The translations under genes were made by a program, and so were the position numbers. A stretch of DNA of 64,000 bases, from the IMG/VR virus record IMGVR_UViG_3300020166_000010; one strand, 5' to 3'. Under the pieces are notes generated by a model that did not search any database, had not been told where the DNA came from, and worked only from the letters and a program-made list of their open reading frames with translations. Below, in pieces: positions 2,829 through 31,070 of the stretch. Position 1 is the stretch's first letter, and each line of letters starts with the position of its first letter. This DNA comes from a virus.

Positions 2829-2876
2829 ATCTTTGTTTTTATTATTTTTTAGTTACTCCTGTTTTATTTATTCTAA

Positions 2877-9986: not shown

Positions 9987-11726
9987 TTAGAATTGGTAAA
10001 CGAATACTACTTCGTCTTGTGCATCAATTACATAACCTGGGTTAGCGATTGTAACCTGTGGTCCTGCAACTAATTCAACAAATACTCTGTGCCCGTTAAC
10101 GAATACATCTACTAAAGATGCTTGGTCTTCTTGTACAGGGTTTGCTAAATTGTAAACGAATCCAGCTCCAGCGAATGTTTCAGTAGCCATTTGATCATCT
10201 TCGATGATAGCAGCTTCTAATACATCTAATCTACCGTCTTGTGCAGCATCTTTGTTATCAACTCTTGTAAAGTCAGAGTTAGTAGCAGCGATTTCAGCAG
10301 CTAAAGCAGCTTCTAAAGCAGTGTCAGCGTTTTCACGTGCAGTTTGCTCAGCAGACATTTCAGCGTCATGCTTAGTTTCTAATGAAGTAAAGTCAGAGTT
10401 AGTAGCAGCGATTTCAGCAACTAAACCAGCTTCAACATCTGATACTCTCGTATCAATTGAAGTAAATTCAGCAGTGATTGCTCCTTCTAATGAAATAACA
10501 TCAGAATTAGTAGCAGCGATTTCAGCAGCTAAAGCAGAATCAATTCTAGTAACATCAGAGTTAGTAGCAGCGATTTCAGCAGCTAATTCTCCTTCAACTC
10601 TTGTAAAGTCAGAGTTAGTAGAAGCGATTTCAGCGTTTAAGTTAGAAATTACTACAGCTAAAGCGTCGTCATTTACAGTATCAACAGCGTTGATTAAAGA
10701 AACGATTTCAACGAATGTATCTTTATCAGCATCAGATGCTAATAAGATTGCGTCGATTCTTGCGTTTTCTGCGTCAATGTTAGACTGTAACGTTGCGTCA
10801 GCAGCAGCATAAGCAGCTTCAACTCTTACGAAGTCAGAGTTAGTAGATGCAATTTCTGCAGCTAATTCTCCTTCAACTCTTGTAAAGTCAGAGTTAGTAG
10901 AAGCGATTTCAGCAGCTAAAGCAGAATCAATTCTAGTAACATCAGAGTTAGTAGCAACGATTTCAGCGTCTAATTCAACTCTTAAGTCAGATACTTCATC
11001 AACTAAATCTCCAGATACTTCTCCTAATCTTAAGTCAATAGAAGTAACATCAGAATTAGTAGATGCGATTTCATTTTCTAACGCAAGTTGTAAAGCAGCG
11101 TCGCCGTTTGCACGTGCAGTTTGCTCTGCAGACATTTCAGCGTCATGCTTAGCCTCTAAAGAAGTAAAGTCAGAATTAGTAGCTGCAATCTCTGCAGATA
11201 ATTCTCCCTCAACTCTTGTAAAGTCAGAGTTAGTAGCAGCGATCTCTTGAGAGATTGCTAAGTTAATGCTTGTGAAATCTGCGTTAGTTGCAGCGATCTC
11301 ATTGTTTAAGTCAACGATTACCGCTCCTAAAGCGTTATCATTTTCTAAATCAACAGCATTAATTAAAGAAACAACCTCAACGAATGTATCTTTATCAGCA
11401 TCAGCTGCTAATAAGATTGCGTCGATTCTTGCGTTTTCTGCATCAATGTTAGATTGTAACGTTGATTCAACACCTTCAGCTCTTAATTGCTCAGTAGATA
11501 AATCTCCCTCTAATCTAGAAACATCTGCGTTTGTTGCTGATACTTCACCAGCTAAAGCAACTTCTAAAGAGTCAATTGAAGCGTCTAATTCAGTTTGAGC
11601 TGCAGTGATCTCATCACCAACATACTTTGCGATGTCAGATGTGTTTGCAATCTCAAAAGAAGAAGTAGCTGCCCAGTTTACCGTGCTTAAGAAATCCTTA
11701 ATTTGTTTTGAACGAATTTGTGCCAT
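9987..11726 (-). CDS. Acidic repetitive coiled-coil fibre protein, 579 aa
   Basis: ~18-aa repeats (EIAATNSDFTRVEGELAA), an internal duplication and a small C-terminal beta domain. Confidence 0.8.
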   Translation of the reverse strand: MAQIRSKQIKDFLSTVNWAATSSFEIANTSDIAKYVGDEITAAQTELDASIDSLEVALAGEVSATNADVSRLEGDLSTEQLRAEGVESTLQSNIDAENARIDAILLAADADKDTFVEVVSLINAVDLENDNALGAVIVDLNNEIAATNADFTSINLAISQEIAATNSDFTRVEGELSAEIAATNSDFTSLEAKHDAEMSAEQTARANGDAALQLALENEIASTNSDVTSIDLRLGEVSGDLVDEVSDLRVELDAEIVATNSDVTRIDSALAAEIASTNSDFTRVEGELAAEIASTNSDFVRVEAAYAAADATLQSNIDAENARIDAILLASDADKDTFVEIVSLINAVDTVNDDALAVVISNLNAEIASTNSDFTRVEGELAAEIAATNSDVTRIDSALAAEIAATNSDVISLEGAITAEFTSIDTRVSDVEAGLVAEIAATNSDFTSLETKHDAEMSAEQTARENADTALEAALAAEIAATNSDFTRVDNKDAAQDGRLDVLEAAIIEDDQMATETFAGAGFVYNLANPVQEDQASLVDVFVNGHRVFVELVAGPQVTIANPGYVIDAQDEVVFVYQF

Positions 11727-16331: not shown

Positions 16332-16358
16332 ATTATACTACTATTTTAGAGAAAGTTT
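16332..16358 (-). promoter_or_regulatory. Promoter of class AAAC-N17-TATAA (representative copy)
   Basis: AAAC, 17 nt, TATAAT upstream of 15448..16302; same spacing at more than 10 other intergenic sites. Confidence 0.7.
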
Positions 16359-18317
16359 ATCTTCTCCTTTTTTATATGATATTGAATAAACTTTAGTTCC
16401 AATTGTCATTTTCTTATCTATGATTGCGTCTGCTAAAATATCTTCTACGTAATTTTGAACTGCTCTTTTTAATGGACGTGCTCCATATAGTGGATCATAT
16501 CCTTGTTCTGCTAGGAATGCCTTTGCAGTTTTATTGATTTTAATAGAATAACCTTGTTTTTCTAATCTAGTGATAACTCTATTTAATTCAATATCTACAA
16601 TCTCCAACATATTATCTTTACTTAAAGAATTAAATAAGATCATGTCGTCTAATCTATTTAAGAATTCAGGTGCAAACTTATTTTTAAGTTCCTTTCTGAT
16701 AATAGATTCTACGTGAGATTTCTGAGTTGCAATTGAGCTATTACTTTCAAATCCTATCCCTGCTCCAAAGTCTGAAACTTTTTTAGCACCTACATTTGAT
16801 GTCATTATAATAATAGTATTCGTGAAATCTACAGTTCTTCCTAGGGAATCTGTTAATCTACCCTCGTCTAATACTTGCAATAATGTATTGAATGTATCTG
16901 GATGCGCTTTTTCAACTTCATCAAATAATACAACCGAATAAGGTTTACGTCTTACTTGTTCCGTTAATTGTCCACCACTCTCGTGTCCAACATATCCAGG
17001 AGGAGATCCAATTAATTTAGAAACATTAAACTTTTCTTGATATTCTGACATATCAATTCTAATAATAGAATCTTCATCACCAAAATAATAGTTAGCTAAA
17101 GCTTTGACTGTTTCTGTTTTACCAACTCCAGTAGGTCCAATAAACATAAAAGAACCAATTGGTTTTTTAGATGAACTAACACCAGCTCTAGATCTTTTAA
17201 TTACTTTACATAATCCAGTAACTGCAGAATCTTGTCCGATTATCATCGACTTAAGTTTAGATTCCATGTCCGTGATAACTTTACTTTCGTCGTCTGTCAT
17301 TCTAGAGATTGGAATTCCAGTTGCGTCTGAAATAGTTTCAGCGATATCATCGTATGTTACAGGGCGTCTGTTAATTCTTAAATCACTTTGCCAATCCGAA
17401 ATAGTTTTATCAATAATATCTCTTTGTTTTATTTCAGCATCTCTGAATTTTGCTGCCTTTTCATAATCTTGTTCTTCAACTGCTGCTAGCTTTTGAGACT
17501 TAACTACCTCAATCTTTTTCTCAGCATCTTTAATATGTTCTGGCATCTTAACCTGAGATAGGTGTACTTTTGCACCGGCTTCATCCATTAAATCGATTGC
17601 TTTGTCTGGTAATTCTCTAGAAGTAACATATCTATCAGAAAGTTCAACACATGCTTTTAGTGCCTCATCTGTATATTCTACCGCGTGATAGTCTTCGTAA
17701 TTACCTTTAATTCTATTTAAGATCTCGATAGAATCACTAATTGAAGGTGGATCAATAAAAACTTCTTGGAATCTTCTAGTAAGTGCTCCATCAGTTTCTA
17801 TATTTTCTCTATATTCATCGAGAGTTGTTGCCCCAATACATTGTACCTGTCCTCTCGCAAGGGCTGGTTTTAAAATGTTACTAGCATCTAAAGAACCGCT
17901 AACTCCACCAGCTCCTACCATTGTGTGAATTTCATCAACAAAGATTATAATATCTGGATTAGCCTTTAGCTCATCAACAATCTTCTTCATTCTCTCTTCG
18001 AATTCTCCACGATATTTAGTACCTGCAACAATCGTCGACATATTTAAAGAGATTACTCTTTTACCTGTAAGAGTCATTGCTACTTTTTTATCAACAATTC
18101 TTTGCGCTATAGCCTCAACCAATGCAGTTTTACCAACACCAGGATCTCCTAATATAATTGGATTGTTCTTCTTTCTCCTAGAAAGGATTTGACAAATTCT
18201 ATAAACTTCTTTGTCTCTTCCTATAATAGGATCTAATTTACCCTCAGAGGCTGCAGCTGTTAAGTCTTCTCCGAATTGATCTATTAACGGTGTTTTTGCT
18301 TGTTTCTTATTTGCCAT
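16341..18317 (-). CDS. clpC: ClpC-like AAA+ unfoldase lacking the N-terminal Clp-repeat domain
   Basis: Two AAA modules (GDPGVGKT, GPTGVGKTE, GSPPGYVG, GARPL); UVR middle domain AAVEEQDYEKAAKFRD. Confidence 0.9.
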   Translation of the reverse strand: MANKKQAKTPLIDQFGEDLTAAASEGKLDPIIGRDKEVYRICQILSRRKKNNPIILGDPGVGKTALVEAIAQRIVDKKVAMTLTGKRVISLNMSTIVAGTKYRGEFEERMKKIVDELKANPDIIIFVDEIHTMVGAGGVSGSLDASNILKPALARGQVQCIGATTLDEYRENIETDGALTRRFQEVFIDPPSISDSIEILNRIKGNYEDYHAVEYTDEALKACVELSDRYVTSRELPDKAIDLMDEAGAKVHLSQVKMPEHIKDAEKKIEVVKSQKLAAVEEQDYEKAAKFRDAEIKQRDIIDKTISDWQSDLRINRRPVTYDDIAETISDATGIPISRMTDDESKVITDMESKLKSMIIGQDSAVTGLCKVIKRSRAGVSSSKKPIGSFMFIGPTGVGKTETVKALANYYFGDEDSIIRIDMSEYQEKFNVSKLIGSPPGYVGHESGGQLTEQVRRKPYSVVLFDEVEKAHPDTFNTLLQVLDEGRLTDSLGRTVDFTNTIIIMTSNVGAKKVSDFGAGIGFESNSSIATQKSHVESIIRKELKNKFAPEFLNRLDDMILFNSLSKDNMLEIVDIELNRVITRLEKQGYSIKINKTAKAFLAEQGYDPLYGARPLKRAVQNYVEDILADAIIDKKMTIGTKVYSISYKKGEDKLSLK

Positions 18318-18340
18318 GTTCTTAATTAGTATTTATAGTT

Positions 18341-18367
18341 ATTATAACGAATAAACGGGATTTGTTT
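18341..18367 (-). promoter_or_regulatory. Promoter AAAC-N17-TATAAT for clpC
   Basis: Exact 17-nt spacing. Confidence 0.7.
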
Positions 18368-18383
18368 ATTTATTAATGAAAAA

Positions 18384-18412
18384 AAAAGAGCCAGTGGTTA
18401 ACTAGCTCTTTT
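18384..18412 (-). terminator. Rho-independent terminator
   Basis: AAAAGAGC...GCTCTTTT stem with a T-run on the minus strand. Confidence 0.7.
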
Positions 18413-18468
18413 GTAAAAATCTATGTGGTTAAATGAATCTAACACAGCACGGTTAAATATCGTTCTGC
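18384..18468 (-). ncRNA. Candidate ~85-nt small RNA with three UUAACC repeats
   Basis: Lies between a GATATATA motif (18471-18478) and a terminator; no ORF. Confidence 0.35.
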
Positions 18469-18496
18469 TTTATATATCTATTTTTTCATGAGCAAT

Positions 18497-18712
18497 TTAA
18501 AGATTTACAGATCGCATAGTACATTGGGAGCAAACTACAGCTGAGGTATTTTCAGTTACTTCCGTCCATTCTTTACATTGAGTCTCACCATCGTTCGGCG
18601 CCCATTGTGGATATCTACTTTCGTCTAAGTCGGAATTCATACAAATCATCATGATCTTTTTGTCAGTCTTTTTAGTTTTCCAAACTTTGGTCATCTTTTT
18701 CTTCTTGGTCAT
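18497..18712 (-). CDS. Small basic putative Zn-ribbon protein
   Basis: Four Cys including CSQC; own AAAC-N17-TATAAT promoter at 18732-18758. Confidence 0.65.
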   Translation of the reverse strand: MTKKKKMTKVWKTKKTDKKIMMICMNSDLDESRYPQWAPNDGETQCKEWTEVTENTSAVVCSQCTMRSVNL

Positions 18713-18944
18713 AATATATTATTATTTGATTATTATACTTAAATATTACCTTTTGTTTCTATTTTATTATTCTTTAATTCTTAGAGTTGTTAGAGTTACT
18801 CATAGGATTCTTTGAGGGAATTAAAAATTTTTATTTTTGCAGCTTCTCATTTATTCCACCTCCACCCTCTTTATTATTTTACTTAAAGTAGTTTAAACGT
18901 TATTCAAAGTCTGGGAAAATAATTTTCAGCAACATTCAAAAACT

Positions 18945-19453
18945 AAAAAAACCCAAAAACCCAAATCAATACCAACATTATATCGTAGGTTCCCGCACAC
19001 CGGATAGGATCCCTAGAAGGACCCGGAGCCTGGGAAGTACCCTCGGAGAAAATATCAGGGGGTGTTCCACCCAACCTCTCGCTCCACACATGGGAACCGC
19101 AGGGGACCGACCCCACTAGTGCACACATCACTCTGAGTTACTCATTTAAAAGTTGGCGCAGAGTACAAGTGAGAATTGGGTTTTTCCCTTTTTTTCCTCG
19201 ATGCCTCTTACCCTCTTAGTCCTTATAGAATACTATAGAATATTTCTTTTATATCTTATAGGTTCTCTATCCTAATAGACAAGTAGACGGCGCCAACCTG
19301 CCACTTGCGGGTGCTTTCTTTTTGGGTTATTTGAGGGGTACCCTTAAAGGGGACTGTGAGTGCTTGGAGTCATGTGAGAGGTTGCAACCCTCTGATTGTA
19401 GTGAGTGGTTTGAGTTGGCCCTCTCCCTCCCTATTCAACCTTCAAGCTTAAAG
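18945..19453 (-). ncRNA. Candidate large structured non-coding RNA
   Basis: Promoter AAAC-N18-TATAAC at 19460-19487, no credible ORF, several long-range complementary segments. Confidence 0.4.
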
Positions 19454-19815
19454 ACATAAGTTATATTCACAGGTACCAGATTTGTTTCATAATTTGTAAA
19501 CTTTTTTTATTAACAGTCCTCTGAGGTACTGAGAAGAGGGCGCCCCGCCCGACGGGGTCTAGGGGGTCACTCCCACCCCGGGGATATTTGGGGGGCTGGA
19601 GCACTTTCCTGTTTATATTATTGAGTGTAGGGGGATGGGATCCTTAGAGGGTACCTCTGAGATCTCAAAGAGTACTCCCCATTGGTCTGGAAGGGTCCTT
19701 TTCCCGGGAGACCAGATGGTGCCCATTGGGTAAAGTGTTTTTTGATATATGTTTATTATTAATAGTAGTCATAGCCCCTGACCCCCAGCCCTCGGAGCCA
19801 TGGTAAATTCAGGTT

Positions 19816-20265
19816 TTACCTGCGGAACTTGGGTATTTGCGGCTTTGGTACCTTGGGTGTTGGACTCCCTCCAAGCTTGGGTACTTGCGGCGCGGGTGGA
19901 TTGGGTTTGGGTCTCTGAGCCTTTGGGGAGCCTGGAGCGCCTGGGCTCTCGGGTTGCCCCTTGCCTGGTTGGCCGTCAGGGTTCATAGTACTCTGCATCT
20001 TGTCGCTTGCCTTACCCATGGCATAGTTCCACGCTTTGTCTTTAGCCCACTCTTTTCCGCGACTCCACTTATCTCCTACCCAGTCAGAAAATCCGCGCTG
20101 GTCAGCTTCCCCAGCTGGGGGCTTAGGAGGTGGTACAGCTGCTGCCTTGGGCCTGTCTATCGAGGGCTTCCCTAGGGAGCTCTTTTGATTGGCCTGAGTG
20201 TTAACCCCCTGGGTGTTACTCTGTACCTGTAGGTTTAATTTAGCTTGTGGGCTCTGGTTGATCAT
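19816..20265 (-). CDS. Pro/Lys-rich disordered hypothetical protein
   Basis: 149-aa ORF with a Trp-rich amphipathic central helix; overlaps the end of an upstream small ORF. Confidence 0.55.
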   Translation of the reverse strand: MINQSPQAKLNLQVQSNTQGVNTQANQKSSLGKPSIDRPKAAAVPPPKPPAGEADQRGFSDWVGDKWSRGKEWAKDKAWNYAMGKASDKMQSTMNPDGQPGKGQPESPGAPGSPKAQRPKPNPPAPQVPKLGGSPTPKVPKPQIPKFRR

Positions 20266-20380
20266 AGGTTAGCTGGTCTAGTTGTTGATTTAACTTAGGT
20301 ATACTCTTGTCGTAGGGGTTAGATAGCTTAAGTGCTATAATGCGATTTCTTAACTCTACTATCTGGTCTTGCTTGTTCAT
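20240..20380 (-). CDS. Small hypothetical protein (46 aa, MNKQDQIVELRNRIIALK...)
   Basis: Translated manually; below the ORF-track cutoff; A-rich leader. Confidence 0.45.
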   Translation of the reverse strand: MNKQDQIVELRNRIIALKLSNPYDKSIPKLNQQLDQLTYDQPEPTS

Positions 20381-20505
20381 ACTCTATTTGGTTTTAATTA
20401 AGTTTCTTTATATGGCGCCCTCGGAGTGTTCACTCTGGGAACATTATCTAGGGGTCACCTATTAGTTACTATAGGTTATATATAAGTGACCCACCAGGGT
20501 GACCC

Positions 20506-20989: not shown

Positions 20990-21150
20990 AATTATATAGT
21001 AAATATAACACTTATATTTGATATAAAAAAACTTTTGTGCATTTATTTTTAGTTGAGGTCCTATTTATAATGATTATAAATTAGGAAAGTTTTCACCCTA
21101 GATTTTTTTATATGAAACTAATTGCTTATATTTACTATATAATAATTAAA
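20990..21150. promoter_or_regulatory. Divergent pair of early promoters sharing the palindromic operator ATTTATAAT-G-ATTATAAAT (21063-21081)
   Basis: Both directions match the repeated cassette ending TTATATTTA(C/A)...ATAATTAA. Confidence 0.8.
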
Positions 21151-21161
21151 ACAACTACTAC

Positions 21162-21515
21162 ATGAATATCAAAATCACCGCAGACGAAGAAAGAGTTATC
21201 AAATATGCACTCGCAGACTATACTAATAACTTAGTTGGTAAGGGAATTCTATATAATACCGCTGTTGGTATCTTAAATAAGATTAACGATGCTGGTATTG
21301 TGAAGGCAGCGAGAACACCTAAGGTGCTGGTTCAGAAGCAATATATGTTCTCATTCGAGAATGGCGGATGGAACACAGTGTGGGCTAAAACACTACCTGG
21401 TGCTAAGCGTCAAGCCTTATTAGAGTATAAGGATTCTGACTTAAATGTTCGATTAGATAGTGTTCACTTAGCTACTAAGAAAGGATTAGATTCGGCAATG
21501 TCCTTATTCTACTAG
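21162..21515 (+). CDS. Hypothetical early protein
   Basis: 117-aa ORF after the promoter cassette. Confidence 0.7.
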   Translation: MNIKITADEERVIKYALADYTNNLVGKGILYNTAVGILNKINDAGIVKAARTPKVLVQKQYMFSFENGGWNTVWAKTLPGAKRQALLEYKDSDLNVRLDSVHLATKKGLDSAMSLFY

Positions 21516-21520
21516 GGAAC

Positions 21521-21610
21521 CCTTATTTATAATCATTATAAATTAAGAAAGTTTTCACCCTAGATTTTTTTATATCAATAATTAGTGTTATATTTAACTA
21601 TAATTAAAAA
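21521..21610 (+). promoter_or_regulatory. Early promoter cassette with operator (21525-21543)
   Basis: Near-identical repeat of the cassette. Confidence 0.8.
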
Positions 21611-21620
21611 CGTAATCGTT

Positions 21621-21833
21621 ATGACAAATTTCAAAAACTTATCAATTTACATCTTAGTGATTTTAGCTGGTGTAGCTATTGCTGCCTTTATTATCCCAGC
21701 TGGTATCAAACTATTTTTTAGTGGTTTACTATGGATGATGAATAATCCTGCAACAGGGTTGGTAATCTCTATTACATTCTTAATCGGATGTTTTGTTGGT
21801 AATTTTGAAACAAAGTCTAATAAATCAGTATAA
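21621..21833 (+). CDS. Small two-TM membrane protein (start corrected to 21621)
   Basis: Two hydrophobic stretches; the track start 21585 is a GTG inside the promoter. Confidence 0.65.
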   Translation: MTNFKNLSIYILVILAGVAIAAFIIPAGIKLFFSGLLWMMNNPATGLVISITFLIGCFVGNFETKSNKSV

Positions 21834-21853
21834 TAATAAATCAAACGAACATT

Positions 21854-22990
21854 ATGAGCATTCAAACTTTATCACAAACCGCGGTAGCAACAAGTAAACA
21901 AGAGAGCATCAACGCTCAATCTTTACGCCGCACCCTTCCTTTCCGAGACATTACAATGATCGACGAGACAACCATCGAGTATAAAGGAACTCGTATCCCA
22001 ATTACCAAGCAAGCTTTTAAATCCTTACTATCTCTAGTAGGTATGAGCCAGTCGTTCGCAGACAAATTCTCTAAGCTGTTTAACAAAGAGACTAAAGCGC
22101 AATTCATTAATACTATGAAAAACGCAATGGCATCTAACGCAGGTAAACTTAGCAACGTTACATTGGTTCTAAATCCAATTTCGAAAGCTGTGATCTTATT
22201 TACTAAAGAAGACAAGCTGCAAATCTCAAACGATCAAATGATCCAAGTTGCAGAGAACATGATCTCAGATAGTTCAATGGGAGTATCTAGATGGACTACG
22301 GATCCAACAACAGGTATTATCACAATCGACGCTCATAACCCTAAGGCTGAGTTTGAGATCTTAGGATTAAGTGATGAGGTCTTTACTGGAGGAGTTACAT
22401 TCCGTAATAGTCCACTAAGAGGATTTGAAGTTATGCCATACGTAAATCGCCAATGGTGTACTAATGGTCTAACAACAGCTATGGCACAAGAAGCATACCA
22501 ACTACATTCTTTAGATAATAAGAGTATGGAAAGCTTTTTCGAAAACATGCAAGGTTTAAGACGTAATAACTACGCTCCTGAAGGATTTGCTGATCGAGTT
22601 CGCCAAGCTAACAACACACCTGCTTCGCTACATGAAATGTCTTTTGCACATAACTTAATTTCTAAGCATGCTGGTGAAAGAGCAGAACAATGGGTACCTC
22701 TACAAGAGAACCTCAACGAATATAATAAAGCCGGATTTGATAAATTAACTAACGATCAAATGAAGATGGCTAAAACTAACCAATCGCTTTGGTCAGTAAT
22801 TAATGGAGTTACACACTTTAGTAGTCATGGTAAAGGTATCATCGACACTAACATGCAACCTCATAATGAAGCTGATATCCAAACACGTATTGGAAACCTA
22901 TTAGGCAAAAAGAGTTTTGATCACGAAAACACTATGCCAAACCCTTTTAGTAAGGAACAGCTTCAACAGACTGGAGCTCTTCTGAACTAA
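21854..22990 (+). CDS. DUF932/DUF945-like phage protein
   Basis: FRNS...RQWCTNG motif (RxxCxNG) and SLWSVINGVTH C-terminal helix. Confidence 0.6.
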   Translation: MSIQTLSQTAVATSKQESINAQSLRRTLPFRDITMIDETTIEYKGTRIPITKQAFKSLLSLVGMSQSFADKFSKLFNKETKAQFINTMKNAMASNAGKLSNVTLVLNPISKAVILFTKEDKLQISNDQMIQVAENMISDSSMGVSRWTTDPTTGIITIDAHNPKAEFEILGLSDEVFTGGVTFRNSPLRGFEVMPYVNRQWCTNGLTTAMAQEAYQLHSLDNKSMESFFENMQGLRRNNYAPEGFADRVRQANNTPASLHEMSFAHNLISKHAGERAEQWVPLQENLNEYNKAGFDKLTNDQMKMAKTNQSLWSVINGVTHFSSHGKGIIDTNMQPHNEADIQTRIGNLLGKKSFDHENTMPNPFSKEQLQQTGALLN

Positions 22991-23018
22991 TGTTTAGTTT
23001 GATTTTAATTATTATTAC

Positions 23019-23049
23019 AAAAGGCAGGCGTTGTTTCCTGCCTTTTTTT
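23019..23049 (+). terminator. Rho-independent terminator
   Basis: AAGGCAGG/CCTGCCTT stem plus T-run. Confidence 0.8.
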
Positions 23050-23069
23050 ATACACCTCGGTCAGGGGGC

Positions 23070-23160
23070 CCTTATTTATAATGATTATAAATTACAAAAG
23101 TTTTCACCCTAGATTTTTTTATATCAATAAAAAGTGTTATATTTAATTATAATTAAAAAA
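23070..23160 (+). promoter_or_regulatory. Early promoter cassette with operator (23074-23092)
   Basis: Near-identical repeat of the cassette. Confidence 0.8.
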
Positions 23161-23169
23161 CAAACAAAC

Positions 23170-23454
23170 ATGACTTATTCAAAAATCGTTTCCGCTATCA
23201 ACAATGCTAACCTTTCAGTAGAAGAACTTTCTAAGCTGAATTCTTTCGTGGTTGATACTATTAAATTAAAACGCAAAATGAACGGCGCTGTTATTAAGCA
23301 ATCTCTATCTAGAGGTTCAATGGTAATGGTTGATCACCCTGCACACAAGAACTCTACGTTCGAGGTATTAGAAGTTCGTAGAACTAAAGCAACTATCAAA
23401 GATAGTCAAGGTCGCAGAATGAATGCACCTCTATCTATGTTGATCCCAATGTAA
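23170..23454 (+). CDS. Hypothetical early protein, possible SH3-like C-terminus (start corrected)
   Basis: ATG at 23170 after an A-rich leader. Confidence 0.65.
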   Translation: MTYSKIVSAINNANLSVEELSKLNSFVVDTIKLKRKMNGAVIKQSLSRGSMVMVDHPAHKNSTFEVLEVRRTKATIKDSQGRRMNAPLSMLIPM

Positions 23455-23474
23455 ATTGTCAACAACCCGATTGC

Positions 23475-23548
23475 GGACTTATAGCTCAGCTGGTTAGAGC
23501 AGCGCACTCATAATGCGAAGGTCACAGGTTCGAACCCTGTTAGGTCCA
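23475..23548 (+). tRNA. tRNA with CAT anticodon, most like tRNA-Ile2 (lysidine type)
   Basis: GGACTTA/TAGGTCC acceptor stem, TAGCTCAGCTGGTTAGAGCA D arm, CTCATAA loop, GGTTCGAACCC T arm, A73; followed by CCC, not CCA. Confidence 0.9.
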
Positions 23549-23553
23549 CCCAG

Positions 23554-23635
23554 AATTGTTAATAACTTTTGAAAATAAGTTCACTAAAGTTTTCATATCC
23601 CACTAAAAAGGTTTATATTTACATATAACATTAAA
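23554..23635 (+). promoter_or_regulatory. Early promoter variant with AATTGTTAATAACTTTT upstream box
   Basis: Same upstream box and TTATATTTA core as 30437-30520. Confidence 0.6.
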
Positions 23636-23645
23636 ACACCACGTA

Positions 23646-24731
23646 ATGAATCACTACACTATTAAGAAAACCAAAAACACATATACCCTAACTGAGGTAC
23701 AATCAGGAACAACTCTAAACATTGGATCCACACATCCTAAATTTAACTATGTCGCTAAAGAAGATTCTAAAGGATCTCGTATTATTAATATCAATGGCGA
23801 CAAGTTCACCTCATCTAAAGATTATAGAGGTCACTATAAGAAGTCTACCCAAGCTCAAAAGCCAGCTAAGCCTCTTAATATTACCCTAACCAAGTTAGAT
23901 GATTTAAATATTAATGCCAACTTATTCGTACCTATAGAGACCAATACAGTCTTTGACAAATTCGCATCTACTGCAGGTGGTATTATGCCAGGTACAAACA
24001 TCATGGCGGCCGGAGCCCCAGGTGTTGGTAAAACTACGGTCCTATTAGATCTATTAAGTACTGCACATAAGAGTGGTAAGAAGGTCCTATTCATCTCAGC
24101 TGAAATGTCTCAGATAGATATGGCCCGCTACTTACAACGCTTTCCTCACTGGGGTCAGTTGCCGATCTTATTCCTAGCAGACTATGTGGATGAATGTCCA
24201 AAGACTGTAATCGAACAAGTCTTAAATGGAGGTTGGGATTTGGTCCTAACTGATAGCTACACTGAAGTTAACGACACCGTAAAAGAAGCTTGTAACCTAA
24301 CCCGTGGTAAAGTTGAGAAATGGTTCCTAGACCTAATGATCTCAAATAACAAAGGTGTTAACAAGCCCGGAATCTACACAACCTTTATTACCATCTTGCA
24401 ATTATCTAAAGGAGGTCAATTCGTCGGATCTAACAAACTAAAACACATGACCACGAGCATGATGAGCTTGGACTGGGAAGGTGGAGAAAACGCAGGTCGT
24501 AGATACATGGAATTCTCTAAAAACCGAGTAGGTGCAGTAAACAAAAAACTTTACTTTTCTTTAGAAGGCGGAGTAAGCTTTGACGAAGCCCGATACGCTA
24601 GGGATCTATTTAACGACGAGTTGGTATCTACAGAACGCAAGCAATTAGCGACGGAAGCAGATGCCTTCGACAAGTTATTCGGATTCAGTGAAGTAGATGC
24701 CGAAGACTTAGAAGCTCATATCGAAATATAA
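23646..24731 (+). CDS. RadA/Sms-like RecA-family ATPase (no Zn finger or Lon domain)
   Basis: Walker A GAPGVGKT, FISAEMS, LTDS, GSNKLKH, KNRVG (KNRFG-like). Confidence 0.8.
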   Translation: MNHYTIKKTKNTYTLTEVQSGTTLNIGSTHPKFNYVAKEDSKGSRIININGDKFTSSKDYRGHYKKSTQAQKPAKPLNITLTKLDDLNINANLFVPIETNTVFDKFASTAGGIMPGTNIMAAGAPGVGKTTVLLDLLSTAHKSGKKVLFISAEMSQIDMARYLQRFPHWGQLPILFLADYVDECPKTVIEQVLNGGWDLVLTDSYTEVNDTVKEACNLTRGKVEKWFLDLMISNNKGVNKPGIYTTFITILQLSKGGQFVGSNKLKHMTTSMMSLDWEGGENAGRRYMEFSKNRVGAVNKKLYFSLEGGVSFDEARYARDLFNDELVSTERKQLATEADAFDKLFGFSEVDAEDLEAHIEI

Positions 24732-24757
24732 GGGTCCTATTAGGATTCCTAAGCCTT

Positions 24758-24786
24758 CCTCCCGGTTATGTGGTGTTTCCGGGAGG
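24758..24786 (+). other. 8-bp GC stem-loop with a 13-nt loop complementary to early-gene leaders
   Basis: CCTCCCGG/CCGGGAGG stem; loop TTATGTGGTGTTT. Confidence 0.6.
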
Positions 24787-25343
24787 TTTGGTGTATTTGG
24801 AGCATTGGGGCACCTGTATATCCTCGGACCGGTCATGGTAAAAAACGCTCCTCCGGTGTGAGCCAATTGGCGTTGGGGTTTAAGGTTCCTACAGGGACTT
24901 TACTTGGATGCTATATTTAGGGATTACTTGGGAATACCCTTGGATGGCTAGGAGAATCCTTACAAGCCTATCTAGCTTTCTTATATCTCTATTAGGTTAT
25001 TATAGGAGGATGGAGTTTTAAGATCTTATATACCTATACCTATATCTCTATTACTAGGATCCGTATTACTTGGATAGTTGTTTGCCTTATCTTGCTTGTC
25101 TCTTCTTAGATCTCTTATATCTTTCTTTCTTTTCTTATTCTTCTTGTTGGGATTCTTATTCTTATCTCTTCTTTGTTATCTATTATGATTGATTCTTTTG
25201 GTCACGTGCGAGGGTCCATTTTACAAGAATCTTTGCACGCTCGGGTGGTTTGTAGTGTGGTCGGTCAAAAGGATTGATATTCTACAGGTTTTTAGGATCG
25301 GGTTCTTAAGGAGTGAGCCTATATATACCTCTTCTTTTTGTCA

Positions 25344-25440
25344 CCTTATTTGGAATGATTATAAATTACAAAAGTTTTCACCCTAGATTTTTTTATATCA
25401 ATAATTAGTGTTATATTTACTATATAATAATTAAAACAAC
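25344..25440 (+). promoter_or_regulatory. Early promoter cassette with degenerate operator (ATTTGGAAT-G-ATTATAAAT, 25348-25366)
   Basis: Near-identical repeat of the cassette. Confidence 0.8.
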
Positions 25441-25447
25441 TACACTC

Positions 25448-25825
25448 ATGCCTTACATTACTAAAGATCAAGTTTCTCAAAAAAGAAAAGAATTAAAAGC
25501 TGCCTTACCTGACTATAAGCTATCTATTACTACTGAACATTATTCTGGTATTAAGGTTGCTATCATGGCAGGTCCTACTGATTTTGGAACTGAATACTCT
25601 CAACTAAATCCTCATCATGATTATCGAGGAGAAACTTGGAACCGCTATACTGAAGAATACGATTCTAACCCTCCTATCCAAGATGTTCTAGATATTATTA
25701 TGCCTATTCTAAATGAAGGCAAAGGAGAGGGTCATGAAGATGGAGATTACGGTATGATTCCTGATTATTATACTTGGGTTCATATTGGTAAATGGGATAA
25801 AGCTTATGAAATTAAAACTAAATAA
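25448..25825 (+). CDS. Hypothetical early protein, possibly LPD29-like
   Basis: RKELKAALPDYKLSIT..YSGIKV N-terminal motif (recalled resemblance only). Confidence 0.6.
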   Translation: MPYITKDQVSQKRKELKAALPDYKLSITTEHYSGIKVAIMAGPTDFGTEYSQLNPHHDYRGETWNRYTEEYDSNPPIQDVLDIIMPILNEGKGEGHEDGDYGMIPDYYTWVHIGKWDKAYEIKTK

Positions 25826-25826
25826 T

Positions 25827-26054
25827 ATGACAAACGAAAACACAGGATATCTTCCACAAATCGCATTCAATCTAGTAGATGAAAATAGAACTACACTTGA
25901 GTATTTTATTAATAAACATATTGAAGAGTTTGGAAAGTTTTCATCCTCTGATCTAATGTGGATCTTTGATGCTTCTGCTAGTATTAAAAGAACCCGAGCT
26001 CAGGAAACTAATGAATGGAATGACAGCCTTAATATTGAATCTTATACACTTTAA
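25827..26054 (+). CDS. Hypothetical protein (start corrected)
   Basis: ATG directly after the previous stop. Confidence 0.6.
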   Translation: MTNENTGYLPQIAFNLVDENRTTLEYFINKHIEEFGKFSSSDLMWIFDASASIKRTRAQETNEWNDSLNIESYTL

Positions 26055-26058
26055 AATT

Positions 26059-26346
26059 ATGAAAACAAAAGAATTAATTTGGAAATTAGAATCTACTATC
26101 TATTTATTAGATGAGATTGTTTTAAACTATCGATCTGAAGATTGGAATATGTTAAAAGCTCGCATTGCTGATCATATTGGAGTCACTAAAGGCTCGGTTA
26201 ATATGGCTATAGGAAATCTAAAGTGGATTTTATCTGATGGCTCTGAAGGCCTCTCTGCTTATACTGTTCGTCAGGAGGAAGCGGTTAGACTTACTTTAGA
26301 GAAATATGAATTAAGTAAGCAAAAACTTTTAATGATACTATCTTAA
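26059..26346 (+). CDS. Hypothetical protein, possible HTH (start corrected)
   Basis: IADHIGVTKGSVNMAI resembles an HTH. Confidence 0.6.
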   Translation: MKTKELIWKLESTIYLLDEIVLNYRSEDWNMLKARIADHIGVTKGSVNMAIGNLKWILSDGSEGLSAYTVRQEEAVRLTLEKYELSKQKLLMILS

Positions 26347-26355
26347 TTATTAAAC

Positions 26356-27414
26356 ATGAAAATTAAATTTATTATAATCGCATTTTTTGTAGCAGCTACA
26401 TGTAATGCACAGAAAACCCTTGTATCTGACATCACAGATGTAGATCTAAGTAATACAGAGCAATCAGGATATGTTAATTGGGATTTCACCAATAATACAA
26501 CCGGATATGCCTGGACCTGGGGAGCACCTGGAATGCTAGTCTATGGAGATGCGCCTGAAATGTGCTTGGACATAGAAGCTGAAATTAAAAACATATCTCA
26601 CGTATGGGGAGCTGGTATCTCTATTGGAGTAGATGAATCCTCAACAAACAGTGAACTAAAGTATAATGGCATTAATAACTATTATTTATCAGTAGAAGAC
26701 GATGTTGTTGGATTATTTAGAGGAACCAATAACACACAAGAAGATTTCATGGCTGATACACTAGCATACGTCGGTGTGACAATTGATCAAACTGAATGGT
26801 ATAAATTAAGATTAAAAATAGAAGCAGATACGATATATGGATATGTTAACGATGTTCTATACATTAACCATAAGGTAGATAGTATACAAAAGAACGGTAA
26901 GTTTGCTATAGTATCTTCTAATAGTGAAAATACATATAAGAATATAAAAGCAAGATATCACAAAGATCCATACTATATTAGTAGTGATACTATTGTAGAA
27001 TTTGTAAGTGATGTTAATCACCCAGAATGGAATAACTTACCTGTCACTCGATTAGATAGTGTTGAAACTGTAGTAGAAGCCGATGGATTAGATCATTTCA
27101 TAAGCCATTATATACAATATAAAGAATCTGAATCAATTAATATAGGAGATGATGATTGTGATTGCATTTGCCCAGCAGTAACTACCCTATCGATATATCC
27201 AAATCCAGTATCTGAATATATTAACGTAAGTATACAACAGCCTGAAGGAACACTCAAGGTTTATAGCATGCATGGATCATCTGTTAAATCCTATGATTTA
27301 AAATATGGAATTAATAGAATAGATATGACAAGATATCCAATAGGACATTATTTATTCAAAGTAGAATACGAAGGAAGAAAGGCATTAATAGAAAAGATAA
27401 TAGTAACTCATTAA
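26356..27414 (+). CDS. Secreted protein with ConA-like beta-sandwich and T9SS type A C-terminal sorting domain
   Basis: Sec signal peptide (..CNA/Q); C-terminal SIYPNPVSEYINV...IDMTRYPIGHYLFKV...KIIV. Confidence 0.8.
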   Translation: MKIKFIIIAFFVAATCNAQKTLVSDITDVDLSNTEQSGYVNWDFTNNTTGYAWTWGAPGMLVYGDAPEMCLDIEAEIKNISHVWGAGISIGVDESSTNSELKYNGINNYYLSVEDDVVGLFRGTNNTQEDFMADTLAYVGVTIDQTEWYKLRLKIEADTIYGYVNDVLYINHKVDSIQKNGKFAIVSSNSENTYKNIKARYHKDPYYISSDTIVEFVSDVNHPEWNNLPVTRLDSVETVVEADGLDHFISHYIQYKESESINIGDDDCDCICPAVTTLSIYPNPVSEYINVSIQQPEGTLKVYSMHGSSVKSYDLKYGINRIDMTRYPIGHYLFKVEYEGRKALIEKIIVTH

Positions 27415-27420
27415 ATATTT

Positions 27421-28014
27421 ATGATAATATACGTTGCACCCCCTCGAGGGATTCAAGAAAAACAAGATTGCTTTAATTGGCTAACACAATATGGACATGA
27501 AGTTGTTTGGTTAGATTTAAGACGTAAAGTCAAAGGCCCTCTACTCTTATGTGGAGGCGCTGATATCGGTAAAGATCAAGAACGCGATGATCGAGAAAAG
27601 ATTTGGATTAAACAAACCCTTGCTGATGGATATCCTATTATTGGTCTTTGTCGAGGCATGCAAGTTTTAAACTCTTATTTTGGAGGTGTTGTTGAAGATC
27701 TTAGCGATCGTATAGTAGAAGATCATAAAGCTGCTGATTTTTCAGAAAATATTGACCACAGTGGAAAACCTTCACAATTTCACACAGTAGAAGATTTACA
27801 TGGTAAATTAATAAACGTTAATTCTCGACACCATCAACATTGTTCAGTAATAGCAGACAATTTCAAGGCCACTCATCTTTCATATCCTTTATATTCTGTA
27901 ATAGAAGGTTTTGAAGATATTGATCAAAAGATTTGGGCAGTGCAGTGGCATCCTGAAAAAATGGAATCCGAAGATAATGAATACCCTTTAAATAAACTAA
28001 TTAATTTAAAATAA
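27421..28014 (+). CDS. Peptidase C26 / gamma-glutamyl hydrolase (class I glutamine amidotransferase-like)
   Basis: GGADI, GLCRGMQ, VNSRHHQ, VQWHPE. Confidence 0.85.
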   Translation: MIIYVAPPRGIQEKQDCFNWLTQYGHEVVWLDLRRKVKGPLLLCGGADIGKDQERDDREKIWIKQTLADGYPIIGLCRGMQVLNSYFGGVVEDLSDRIVEDHKAADFSENIDHSGKPSQFHTVEDLHGKLINVNSRHHQHCSVIADNFKATHLSYPLYSVIEGFEDIDQKIWAVQWHPEKMESEDNEYPLNKLINLK

Positions 28015-28268
28015 TGGACCAAAACATGATACTAAGATCTGGCAAATATCAAGGATATACTGTCAGAGAAGCTTATCGAAAAGACCCTTCATATATTAGA
28101 TGGGTTATTGAAAATGTACCGGCAATGCTAAAGAGCCACGGCCCTAGTAAAAAAGCTAAAGTAGTAGAAGCTCGTAAACCATTTGAATATAAGCAACCAC
28201 CTGATGTTGAAAAGACTATAGAAAATGGTTGGATTCCACCTGGCAGTGTAGAAGATGCATTTTTTTGA
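28014..28268 (+). CDS. Small protein with GKYxG...DPxYxxW motif
   Basis: SGKYQGYTV...DPSYIRWV. Confidence 0.6.
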   Translation: MDQNMILRSGKYQGYTVREAYRKDPSYIRWVIENVPAMLKSHGPSKKAKVVEARKPFEYKQPPDVEKTIENGWIPPGSVEDAFF

Positions 28269-28286
28269 AAATAAATGAATTTTTGT

Positions 28287-28352
28287 GAAAATAAATGCAT
28301 AAAAGTTTTTTTATCCCAATAAAAAGTGTTATATTTAATTATAATTAAAAAA
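28287..28352 (+). promoter_or_regulatory. Early promoter cassette without the operator
   Basis: AAAATAAATGCA.AAAAGTTTTTTTAT...GTGTTATATTTAATTATAATTAAAAA. Confidence 0.75.
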
Positions 28353-28361
28353 GCAATAGAC

Positions 28362-28694
28362 ATGAACAAATTAGAAACATTAGGATTAGTTGAAATAACT
28401 TCAAAAACTCAAAAGAAAAACGGTACAAGATGCTTTTACGATCCAATCGCTGATTGCGATTATCTAAGTTATGAAAGTGGATATGTTCGTAGAGCTTATA
28501 CTAAAGCTACTCACTACTCTTCTAGACTACACCGAACAATTTATCAATTAAACCTCAAGGGTCGTGGTTACTACAAAAGCCAATACAGCGATAAAATCTA
28601 CGAAACAACCGTTCGTTTAATGATTCCAAGTGAACAAGCTAGACTTGATCGACTTGCTAAGTGTGTTGTTATTTATAGAAAAAATAAACTTTAA
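28362..28694 (+). CDS. Hypothetical early protein (start corrected)
   Basis: ATG after the cassette. Confidence 0.65.
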   Translation: MNKLETLGLVEITSKTQKKNGTRCFYDPIADCDYLSYESGYVRRAYTKATHYSSRLHRTIYQLNLKGRGYYKSQYSDKIYETTVRLMIPSEQARLDRLAKCVVIYRKNKL

Positions 28695-28789
28695 TATGAT
28701 ACTTGAATGGATTATAGTAGGCTCTATTCTAATAGCATGGAATGCCTTTCTAATTATTAAAATGCGTAAAGAAGATAAATAGATTAACA

Positions 28790-30319
28790 ATGAATTTTAT
28801 AGAAGAGATCATCGAGAGTGGAGACACATCTAATTTAATGTTTAGATTTCCTCCAGAACCTAATGGACACCTACACTTAGGACATGCCAAAGCAATTTGT
28901 CTTAATTTTGATTTAGCACACAAATATAAAACAGGGTGCAATCTTAGATTTGACGATACTAATCCATTGGCAGAGTCTACTGTATTTGCAGATTCTATCA
29001 TGGAAGATGTTGCTTGGCTTGGATATAGACCTACCGAAGTCGAAGAAACTAGTAACTATTTTAAATTTATACAAAGATGTGCTAGTCAATTGATTATACA
29101 AGGTGATGCATACATGGATGATTCAACATCCGAAGAGATTGCTGAATTAAAAGGAGATCTTGAAAATCCAGGATCCGATTCGCCATATCGCAATAGAACG
29201 ATTGCAGAAAATTTAGAAGAATTTAGAAAGCTATGTGAAGGCAGTATCAAAACTGTTTTGAGAGCTAAAATCGACATGGCAGATCCTAATCTATTAATGA
29301 GAGATCCTGTTATCTATAGATCTATTGATGCCCCTCACCATAACACAGGCACGGACTTTAAAGCGTATCCTATGTATGATTTTGCACATCCTATTTCAGA
29401 TTGGAAAGAAGACATCACACATTCATTATGTACTTTAGAATTTGAAGCGCATCGACCTTTTTATAATTGGACTCTTGATAAATTATTCGATACTAGTGTC
29501 TTTGGTCCTAATCCTCGTCAAATTGAATTCTCAAGATTAAATGTACAAGGGTTTACTTTAAGTAAAAGATATTTAAAAGAACTTGTAGAAGAAGGAGTTG
29601 TTGATGGATGGGACGATCCTCGCATGCCAACATTGAAAGGATTAAAGCGTCGTGGATTTACTCCAGATGCTATTAGAAACTTTTGTGAAAAGGTTGGAAT
29701 CTCTAAAAGAGAATCTCAAATTGAGAGATCTTTATTAGATGGATGTTTACGTGATGATTTAAATAAGATTTCAGAACGCAGAATGGTAGTCAAAGATCCA
29801 ATTAAACTAACAATTGTTGGTGATTTTAAACCAGGATTTGCTGCTCTTGAAAATAATCCAGAATCATCTATAATATCAGCTCGTAAAGTAAATTACTCTG
29901 AACAATTCTGGATTGAACGAGAAGACTTTAGAGTAAGTGCCAATAAGAAATATAAAAGACTAAAACTCGGAGATAATGTTAGACTAAAGGGTGTTTGTAT
30001 TGTAAAGGCGGTTGATTACACTGAAATAGATGGTATAATCACTGAAGTGTTTTGTGAACATTATCCTGATAGTTTTTCAGGAATGAAAACAGATGTAAAA
30101 GCGAAAGGAACAATACATTGGGTAAATAGAGATGAAGCAGTTGAAATTAAATTAAACCACTTTGATGGATTAGATAAAGGAACAATTTCAGCGTTTGGAG
30201 AACCTTTATTGAGGCTAGAATACGAAAAACCAGTACAATTCGTTCGACATGGCTACTATATGAAAGATGGGGACAGTTGGAACCATTCAGTATCTTTAAA
30301 AAGTAGTTATAATGGGTGA
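28790..30319 (+). CDS. glnS: Glutaminyl-tRNA synthetase
   Basis: RFPPEPNGHLHLGHAKAI, LRFDDTNP, YPMYDFAH, THSLCTLEF, LSKR, GWDDPRMPT, KGTIHWV. Confidence 0.93.
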   Translation: MNFIEEIIESGDTSNLMFRFPPEPNGHLHLGHAKAICLNFDLAHKYKTGCNLRFDDTNPLAESTVFADSIMEDVAWLGYRPTEVEETSNYFKFIQRCASQLIIQGDAYMDDSTSEEIAELKGDLENPGSDSPYRNRTIAENLEEFRKLCEGSIKTVLRAKIDMADPNLLMRDPVIYRSIDAPHHNTGTDFKAYPMYDFAHPISDWKEDITHSLCTLEFEAHRPFYNWTLDKLFDTSVFGPNPRQIEFSRLNVQGFTLSKRYLKELVEEGVVDGWDDPRMPTLKGLKRRGFTPDAIRNFCEKVGISKRESQIERSLLDGCLRDDLNKISERRMVVKDPIKLTIVGDFKPGFAALENNPESSIISARKVNYSEQFWIEREDFRVSANKKYKRLKLGDNVRLKGVCIVKAVDYTEIDGIITEVFCEHYPDSFSGMKTDVKAKGTIHWVNRDEAVEIKLNHFDGLDKGTISAFGEPLLRLEYEKPVQFVRHGYYMKDGDSWNHSVSLKSSYNG

Positions 30320-30436
30320 TCCTTTAGATATATAAAGAAAACAGACAAAAAGCCATGATAATATTTTGCATTGTATTCTTAGCCGTTAGCTTCGTAATTG
30401 GAGTTAACATGCTATTAGAATCTAGAAATCGTAAGT

Positions 30437-30520
30437 AATTGTTAATAACTTTTTTAAAATAAGTGAGTCAGGATTTTCCTGGTTCACTTTTTTTGGTTAT
30501 ATTTATACTATAATTAAAAG
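30437..30520 (+). promoter_or_regulatory. Early promoter variant with AATTGTTAATAACTTTT box
   Basis: Matches 23554-23635. Confidence 0.6.
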
Positions 30521-30529
30521 ATAATTAAC

Positions 30530-30961
30530 ATGGCAATACCTAAAATTTACAAGTACGGAATCGAAATCACAAAGCCCTGGTCTTCTGAGATGTACGATTT
30601 TAACGAAAACATCAAAGAATACTATCAAGATCAAATCAAAGATCTGATAAACTCCCTCAAAACAACAGAAGATTGTAATTTTATCGCTGGAATAGTAAAT
30701 CCATACAGATATGGAATAGGAACTTCCGATGATATTGAGTACATGAAGTCAGATATGATTAAGAACATTGAGAATGCTGAAAGCCACTGGATGAAAGAGG
30801 TTATTGAAGAACTTTTGATCTTACAGAGAATTTACCCTATGATTTGTGAAGCTACTCCAGAAATGCCAGCAATTTCTCTATATGATTTAGGAATTCCAAT
30901 GAACATTATTGGGTTTGAAACTCGCGATGAGATCTTACTTTTGCGCGAAAGATATTCTTAA
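30530..30961 (+). CDS. Hypothetical early protein
   Basis: 143-aa ORF. Confidence 0.7.
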   Translation: MAIPKIYKYGIEITKPWSSEMYDFNENIKEYYQDQIKDLINSLKTTEDCNFIAGIVNPYRYGIGTSDDIEYMKSDMIKNIENAESHWMKEVIEELLILQRIYPMICEATPEMPAISLYDLGIPMNIIGFETRDEILLLRERYS

Positions 30962-30971
30962 AGCATTAATT

Positions 30972-31070
30972 CTTATTTATAATCATTATAAATAGGACCT
31001 CAACCCAAAATAAATGCACAAAAGTTTTTTTATATCAATAAAAAGTGTTATATTTAACTATAATTAAAAA
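30972..31070 (+). promoter_or_regulatory. Early promoter cassette with operator (30975-30993)
   Basis: Nearly identical to the reverse complement of 20990-21081. Confidence 0.8.

Follow-up and report, generated by a model that had tools for sequence, protein, structure and literature searches.

In the early region of phage T7, strong early promoters are followed by several hundred untranslated nucleotides (nt) before the first gene is reached, and the genome of phage lambda has two RNA sites, each a boxA plus boxB close to a promoter, at PL-nutL and PR-nutR. Here we describe a locus that recalls both, on the minus strand of a 64,000-nt stretch of DNA (the window; positions are counted from its first letter) belonging to the IMG/VR virus record IMGVR_UViG_3300020166_000010. 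At positions 18,945 to 19,815, a conserved promoter-plus-leader cassette leads into DNA that is rich in G+C (GC) and free of any conserved open reading frame (ORF), which the initial annotation had proposed to be a large structured non-coding RNA (ncRNA) with long-range base pairing. The analysis does not support that proposal. The reading we favour, tentatively and with somewhat less than even confidence, is that the stretch is an untranslated, largely unstructured cis-regulatory spacer that would act through its composition and short motifs, and that it lies behind one of the two copies of a specialised promoter-leader cassette; what the sequences establish is the anatomy, and the regulatory role is what that anatomy may signify.

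The likeness to T7 consists of a conserved strong-promoter region and hundreds of untranslated nt that together precede a long run of same-strand genes. There is, however, a single cassette here in place of T7's three tandem promoters, no RNase III-type hairpin was detected, and a second, inverted copy lies at a distance. The likeness to lambda is of another kind: two copies per genome, each a putative promoter with a short conserved leader in which a UCUUUAA core resembling boxA (GCUCUUUAA) is accompanied by a small hairpin, and downstream a C-rich untranslated stretch comparable to the rut site of lambda tR1. Yet the two copies are convergent and 66-144 kb apart whereas those of lambda are adjacent and divergent, the hairpin is only 3 bp long, no N-like antiterminator protein was identified, and a boxA-like 7-mer is common in A+T-rich (AT-rich) DNA.

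Two further comparisons concern T4 and its relatives. The T4 origins oriF and oriG combine a middle promoter with an A+T-rich unwinding element and an R-loop, oriE combines an early promoter with 12-nt iterons, and T4 origins lie near regions of transcriptional divergence (PMC3016281). Our locus shares with them a promoter-like element directed into non-coding DNA, short repeated motifs, a nearby point of transcriptional divergence and the presence of several copies per genome, but it has no A+T-rich unwinding element after the promoter and its repeats are degenerate 9-mers without regular spacing. The PeSL of T4-type phages are composite promoter/terminator cassettes with a terminator stem-loop, found many times per genome and in hyperplastic regions (PMC2839356, PMC4122927). 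Like them, the cassette is a short, conserved and presumably regulatory element at the junction of unrelated flanking sequences in related phages; unlike them, it occurs twice per genome, contains no terminator-like hairpin and has one copy antisense to its neighbours. Untranslated control regions next to promoters are a known kind of element, as are conserved regulatory cassettes; an inverted two-copy cassette with a GC island and an excess of 9-mers is an undescribed variant of them, here from an uncultured phage clade.

A bipartite, promoter-like cassette

Read along the minus strand, the cassette consists of an A-tract with GTTTAC, the hexamer TGAAAC (19484-19489), an 18-nt variable spacer, the hexamer TATAAC (19460-19465) and then the leader TTATGTCTTTAAGCTTGAAGGTTGAATAGGG, which includes the 9-mer GTCTTTAAG at 19447-19455. 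When the locus is aligned with the syntenic loci L001 and L009, a single sharply conserved block stands out, at ~19430-19510, and in the close relative L081 the cassette is identical at 77 of 77 positions within flanking DNA that is 85-93% identical. The 18-mer TATAACTTANGTCTTTAAG is present in 57 IMG/VR stretches, and 55 of these share a longer pattern made up of tTGAAAC, an 18-nt variable spacer, TATAACTTA(A/T)GTCTTTAAG and then CC-T..G.G-TAAAAT. Among 32 distinct cassette versions, drawn from ~55 viral contigs, TGAAAC stands exactly 18 nt upstream without exception while the spacer varies. The TATAAC side belonged to the search pattern, and the independent evidence therefore consists of TGAAAC and its spacing only; an invariant hexamer at a fixed distance across a free spacer nevertheless gives the cassette the appearance of a bipartite polymerase site.

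The AAAC-N18-TATAAC promoter motif reported by the initial annotation is present, as GAAAC-N18-TATAAC at 19460-19488, and forms part of this larger unit. Two conserved hexamers with fixed spacing and a free spacer, the arrangement of a sigma-70-type promoter, are found throughout the 32 versions, and it is from this observed bipartite conservation that we infer promoter activity. In one group of contigs the cassette stands 43-46 nt before the ATG of ordinary genes, a distance that fits a promoter with a 5' untranslated region. The predicted leader RNA, conserved over ~30 nt, holds the UCUUUAA core and a mini-hairpin of 3 bp, one position of which varies between C-G, U-G and U-A when the 32 versions are compared by eye.

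Behind the cassette, lineage A (the window, L081 and L096), lineage B (L001, L009, L138, L086, L094 and L093), L108 and L135 all have a comparable stretch without ORFs; in some lineages such a body is missing. In the window, lineage B and L135 the cassette has the orientation of two downstream genes, one for a homologue of a protein of 71 amino acids (aa) and one for a ClpC-like ATPase.

The untranslated stretch behind the cassette

Between the 149-aa and 71-aa ORFs lie 1.1 kb (18713-19815) in which no ORF exceeds 62 aa, so the earlier description of the region as free of ORFs holds. A 37-aa ORF beginning with ATG (18978-19091) has lost its start codon in L081, and the first ATG after the promoter does give only eight codons (MSLSLKVE and then a stop), as had been noted; this ATG is missing from most cassette versions, which have A in place of T. 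Searches with tblastx and tblastn, using neighbouring and cassette-driven proteins, detected no protein remnant. The body of the stretch, that is the part following the cassette, finds only L081 and L096 in an nhmmer search of 217 loci and has no blastn match in the phage collection.

A discrete, structured ncRNA of ~500 nt, as first proposed, would account for a conserved promoter followed by ORF-free DNA of high GC within an AT-rich genome, for the complementary segments, and for the few sequence blocks that the window has in common with lineages B and L108. All five segment pairs do lie where they had been placed, with 9/9, 9/10, 8/8, 7/7 and 8/10 positions paired, and perfect inverted repeats exceed those in dinucleotide shuffles (13 vs 3.0 for 8-mers, 7 vs 0.8 for 9-mers). 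The excess of inverted 8- to 10-mers belongs almost wholly to one low-complexity family, AAAAACCCAA, a tandem pair of which occupies 18947-18964 and whose complement is found at 19176-19185 and 19319-19328, and the 9-mer and 8-mer pairs singled out earlier are what chance would produce. Chance complementarity is itself raised by the division of the body into an A+C-rich left and a G+T-rich right half, the plus-strand G+T fraction being 0.32-0.43 to the left of an AT-rich core and 0.57-0.67 to its right.

The folding energy of the 543-nt region is no better than that of shuffled controls, which is the outcome that the initial annotation had itself named as refuting a structured RNA: the minus strand gave -155.1 against -156.9 +/- 7.1 kcal/mol for dinucleotide shuffles (z-score +0.26), the plus strand a z-score of -0.93, and 120-nt windows on both strands ranged from -2.1 to +1.7 with no structured sub-window. 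A scan with Rfam 15, whose families include tmRNA, RNase P, group I/II introns, GOLLD, ROOL and HEARO, returned at gathering thresholds only a tRNA at 23475-23548, with nothing credible in 18300-20400 at E-values up to 10 and no match in 11 related loci. In L081 and L096, members of the same phage lineage, the helix 19376-84/19072-80 drops from 9/9 to 4/9 pairs and two other helices lose one pair each, with no loss compensated. RNAalifold folds seven homologous leaders at -3.7 kcal/mol, with 18 pairs and no conserved helix, and four closer leaders at -33.8 kcal/mol with an unfavourable covariation term (+1.75), the sample for helices and covariation being a small one of 6-7 lineages. A terminator scan made no call at the proposed 3' end of the RNA, and divergence is close to neutral, as described below. 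There is no sign that the stretch is an RNA gene with a defined fold, and the proposal is close to refuted; we regard it as highly improbable.

Three other forms of internal order were considered and rejected. A diverged large inverted repeat around the AT-rich core scored 12 in local alignment against 10.3 +/- 1.5, a value reached by 74 of 500 shuffles; a long-range partner for the conserved AAUAACCCAAAAA had duplex energies no better than shuffles, at target positions that differ between lineages; and tandem units of ~250-300 nt reached self-alignment E-values of 0.02 or worse.

The composition of the stretch is more telling. The region behind the promoter is GC-richer, as had been remarked, at 0.45-0.49 in the body (0.45 over 18945-19426), compared with 0.19-0.21 at third codon positions (GC3) of core genes and 0.21-0.26 in other intergenic DNA, and the bodies of lineage B and L108 have 0.41-0.44 GC though they barely align with that of the window. 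Beyond the first ~150 nt the bodies of different lineages can hardly be aligned; they share an order of blocks, namely TCACA, a pair of 9-mers 9 nt apart, AATAACCCAAAAA, GCGGCG, further 9-mers and an AT-rich stretch. In the C-rich, G-poor part of the predicted transcript, 78-nt windows with 28 C to 11 G and 28 C to 9 G exceed the 99th percentile (ratio 2.25) for the minus strand of the window; the corresponding counts in L094 run from 25/9 to 27/12.

The region also holds an excess of a short motif. Over 18940-19830 the 7-mer CTYNRAG, mostly within the 9-mer GWCTYNRAG, is found 11 times where 0.9 would be expected (~12-fold); lineage B has 6-7 for 0.5 expected and L108 has 6 for 0.33, and this region of the window is its sole hotspot in the 64 kb outside collagen-like genes, where the motif encodes GLKGD. 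Decayed collagen repeats were rejected as its source, a tblastx comparison of the region with the collagen-like genes giving E-values of 0.6 or worse. The 9-mers are degenerate and, apart from pairs 9 nt apart, form no regular array. Three of them are adjacent in the second ORF-free stretch, upstream of the cassette (19504-19815; plus-strand 7-mer starts 19643, 19655 and 19664), which also holds 6 palindromes with arms of at least 4 nt where 1.3 are expected, and the window segment 19644-19671 matches a site in a lineage B body (L001 4016-4043) with 96% identity over 28 nt.

Could all this be a spacer without function, a GC-rich remnant of foreign or decayed DNA beside a recombination-prone cassette, with selection acting only on the cassette and on the AT-rich region before the 71-aa gene? 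Compared with the relative represented by L081 and L096 (91% identical), no segment of the locus is less conserved than the body, which has 85-87% identity and 5 indels, a level equal to that of third codon positions, which in the flanking genes are 81-85% identical to L081. Neutral drift, however, would be expected to lead toward ~20% GC, yet 41-49% is kept in bodies that cannot be aligned with one another. Different lineages have unrelated sequence joined to the cassette on its downstream side, as at the PeSL junctions of T4-type phages (PMC4122927), and some lineages do without an ORF-free body, but where a body exists its block order is common to lineages, lineages A and B, L093 and L108 each show the CTYNRAG excess independently, and the searches above found no remnant of a protein. 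We consider a functionless spacer unlikely on balance.

Two inverted copies and their possible roles

The window holds one copy of the cassette, and each of five related genomes holds exactly two (at most one mismatch), always inverted with respect to each other and separated by the distances given above. In G001, a close relative of the window, copy 1 is the cassette studied here and copy 2 lies at C1:40895-40913 (L218 about 4372-4425), between the end of the block of structural genes and a 62-aa ORF that is followed by two larger ORFs; in L092, the counterparts of these two have matches to gp32 and to a primase zinc finger. Variants specific to a lineage (T versus A in CTTATGTC, and AAGCT) are found in both copies of a genome, a pattern suggestive of concerted evolution. 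Along 175 kb of G001 (L219-L227), ~140 of 152 long ORFs are on one strand, the only opposite block being one of ~10 kb (121.6-131.9 kb).

Two apparent features of the neighbourhood were discarded: small ORFs of 62-87 aa on the cassette strand behind copy 2 in some lineages were treated as spurious, being kept neither in G001 nor in contig group C, and what looked in groups C, D and E like a long conserved 'non-coding' stretch following the cassette consists of opposite-strand genes. Beside a cassette copy in L116 there is a tRNA match (10270-10403) of 134 nt, far above normal tRNA length, which may contain an intron.

The main rival to a cis-regulatory spacer is an origin-like locus, at which the cassette transcript would prime replication or open the DNA and the 9-mers would be iteron-like protein sites. 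The motif cluster is unique in the 64 kb, but its 9-mers are degenerate, unevenly spaced beyond the 9-nt pairs and subject to turnover between close relatives. An ORF-less promoter 1.5 kb from the sole strand switch of an otherwise nearly one-strand genome, as copy 1 is in G001, has precedents in the T4 origins near transcriptional divergence (PMC3016281), yet the cumulative GC skew of G001 falls monotonically and tracks gene direction only. A G-run, GGGAGGGAGAGGG, stands early in the window's predicted transcript but is not conserved in lineage B. Copy 2 directly adjoins the gp32-like and primase-like genes, and an RNase H-like gene belongs to the same operon of lineage B. Finally, an A+T-rich unwinding element would be looked for just where the DNA is comparatively poor in A+T, the AT content of the first 50 nt after the -10 hexamer being 56% in the window and 50-58% across lineages A and B, against 68% for the genome. 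In our judgement an origin is an unlikely explanation.

RNA-labelled sequencing runs offer a partial view of transcription. Fourteen marine and estuarine runs hold small shares of a 1951-nt stretch covering the locus, and contigs from four of them were mapped; these are assembled contigs, in which transcript ends cannot be read. The 71-aa gene is covered in all four and the 149-aa gene in three (X2, X4 and X7). The body is touched by X2 alone, at 18878-19026 and 19285-19514, and its lack of cover in X4, X5 and X7 is uninformative. The RNA-library contigs neither show nor exclude a transcript from the cassette.

If the cis-regulatory reading is right, the cassette would start leftward transcription toward the 71-aa gene and the ClpC/ClpP block. 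The ~500-740 nt that follow are untranslated, without stable fold and GC-rich, with a C-rich 5' part and the motif excess, and this zone would act in cis through composition and short motifs instead of folding. Its most likely role would be to attenuate or license elongation into the 71-aa/ClpC block, for which the candidate routes are Rho-type loading on untranslated C-rich RNA, a phage factor acting on the 9-mers and the nut-like leader, or both. Support for a leader of this kind comes from the conservation of the cassette and its orientation toward the 71-aa and ClpC genes, from the absence of coding and of a fold, from a GC content that is not neutral, from the motif excess and the surplus of C over G, and from the variation in the mini-hairpin.

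Several observations weigh against it. A simple sigma-70 consensus scan (TTGACA-N16-18-TATAAT) makes no call at the cassette site on the minus strand, where the register that comes closest is TTGAAA followed by a spacer of 19 nt, and the phage's common TATATTTA boxes are lacking in the region, which marks the cassette as a different class of promoter. In the window as a whole these boxes number 27, with 11 expected, and are concentrated in a 10-kb block of rightward genes (21000-31056). Copy 2 is antisense to all neighbouring genes, an odd position for a plain promoter, and the near-neutral divergence of the body also fits an absence of function. The set of CTYNRAG sites changes from the window to L081, L135 shows no excess of them, and the surplus of C over G is weak (1.3-1.9-fold) in L086, L093, L108 and L135, that is in four of six lineages, so that neither feature is universal. 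The X2 contig at 19285-19514 runs across the promoter, which points to read-through or carry-over of DNA and not to a start.

Neighbouring genes and the phage clade

The features of the locus are collected in Table 1. The window is densely coding at 32% GC and, besides the ClpC-like ATPase, contains genes for a ClpP-like protease, two thymidylate-synthase-fold proteins and a GlnRS-like protein, a tRNA-Met and very long collagen-like ORFs. The collagen-like ORFs, four in number and 916-1172 aa long (78-6395 and 36611-42446, minus strand), have GLKGDQG-type Gly-X-Y repeats, are GC-rich with strong strand skew, and are the source of the other CTYNRAG hotspots; they are probably fibres. In L001 (6337-7470) and also in L009, LOG/SLOG-like (lysine decarboxylase-like) and RNase H-like genes stand between a 78-aa gene and ClpC, neither of which genes is found in the window.

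Table 1. Features at and around the cassette locus, in window coordinates
Feature	Position	Strand	Remarks
Promoter-plus-leader cassette, ~75 nt	19427-19503	minus	profile match over 19427-19503; promoter activity predicted
ORF-free GC-rich body (candidate RNA)	18945-19426	minus	without conserved ORF, without excess structure, fast-evolving
AATAACCCAAAAA block	19319-19331	minus	best-conserved block of the body; in lineages A, B and L108, degenerate in L135; without a consistent partner for pairing
C-rich, G-poor part of predicted transcript	19309-19413	minus	~+52 to +156 from TATAAC
AT-rich core	19205-19280		between A+C-rich and G+T-rich halves; repeat TATAGAATA twice
U/G-rich tract UUUGGGUUUUUGGGUUUUUUU	18938-18967	minus	3' end of body; source of most 'long-range' complementarity; no call in terminator scan
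Second ORF-free GC-rich stretch	19504-19815	minus	upstream of cassette; 93% identical to L081
AT-rich spacer upstream of 71-aa gene	18713-18944	minus	24% GC; 97.4% identical to L081
Gene for 71-aa Cys-rich small protein	18497-18712	minus	first ORF downstream of cassette
Intrinsic terminator-like hairpin and T-run	18384-18412	minus	after 71-aa gene; 12-pair stem, then TTTTTCATTA
ClpC-like ATPase	16341-18317	minus	
149-aa Pro-rich ORF	19816-20265	minus	compositionally in the same GC island as the non-coding stretch

The 71-aa protein is lysine-rich with paired cysteines, possibly a zinc ribbon, and belongs to no Pfam or PHROG family. Its homologues occupy the same position in L001, L009, L006 and L135, and lineages A, B and L135 all keep it directly behind the ORF-free zone. 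The AT-rich spacer before it probably holds the gene's own promoter, as a consensus scan finds sigma-70-like sites there at 18761-18732 and 18793-18766 on the minus strand; a weak hint of a separate start is that RNA-library contigs from two studies break off a little before its ATG, at 18736 and 18737. On the other side of the locus, the 149-aa ORF has a flat GC profile over its three codon positions (0.59/0.53/0.55) against a genome GC3 of ~0.2, and identities to L081 of 90, 93 and 85% at those positions. The ATGs of the 71-aa (18712), ClpC (18317) and 149-aa (20265) genes are not preceded by a Shine-Dalgarno-like sequence, an absence suggestive of a host not dependent on Shine-Dalgarno pairing, such as one of the Bacteroidota or a SAR11-like bacterium.

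Relatives of the ClpC-like protein number in the hundreds on IMG/VR viral contigs and marine metagenome contigs, the nearest being 68-81% identical (that of L135 81%), whereas the best match in the collection of cultured and GenBank phages falls below 60% identity. Five related records of 81-236 kb, with estimated completeness of 27-77%, correspond to genomes of roughly 270-300 kb. The source is an AT-rich uncultured marine jumbo phage, for which bacterial-type promoters and terminators are the right frame, and the clade is apparently widespread, uncultured and without a cultured relative in the phage collection.

It is tempting to go one step further and suppose that the cassette and its two inverted copies could define an undescribed cis-acting system in a clade of ~300-kb marine phages, either a pair of transcript-primed origins or a two-site system of processive antitermination. 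Such a system would operate in the GC island behind copy 1, with a phage protein, for which the 71-aa protein is one candidate, binding to the GWCTYNRAG 9-mers; we think it doubtful that so specific a proposal is correct.

The negative outcome for the RNA saves effort that would otherwise go into a false 'large ncRNA'. Three findings stand, modest but real: a sharply conserved cassette that occurs twice per genome in inverted orientation, a GC island far from mutational equilibrium and a strongly enriched short motif. If the cassette does mark origins or an antitermination system, it would provide a handle on the organisation of a ~300-kb genome in which nearly all transcription uses one strand.

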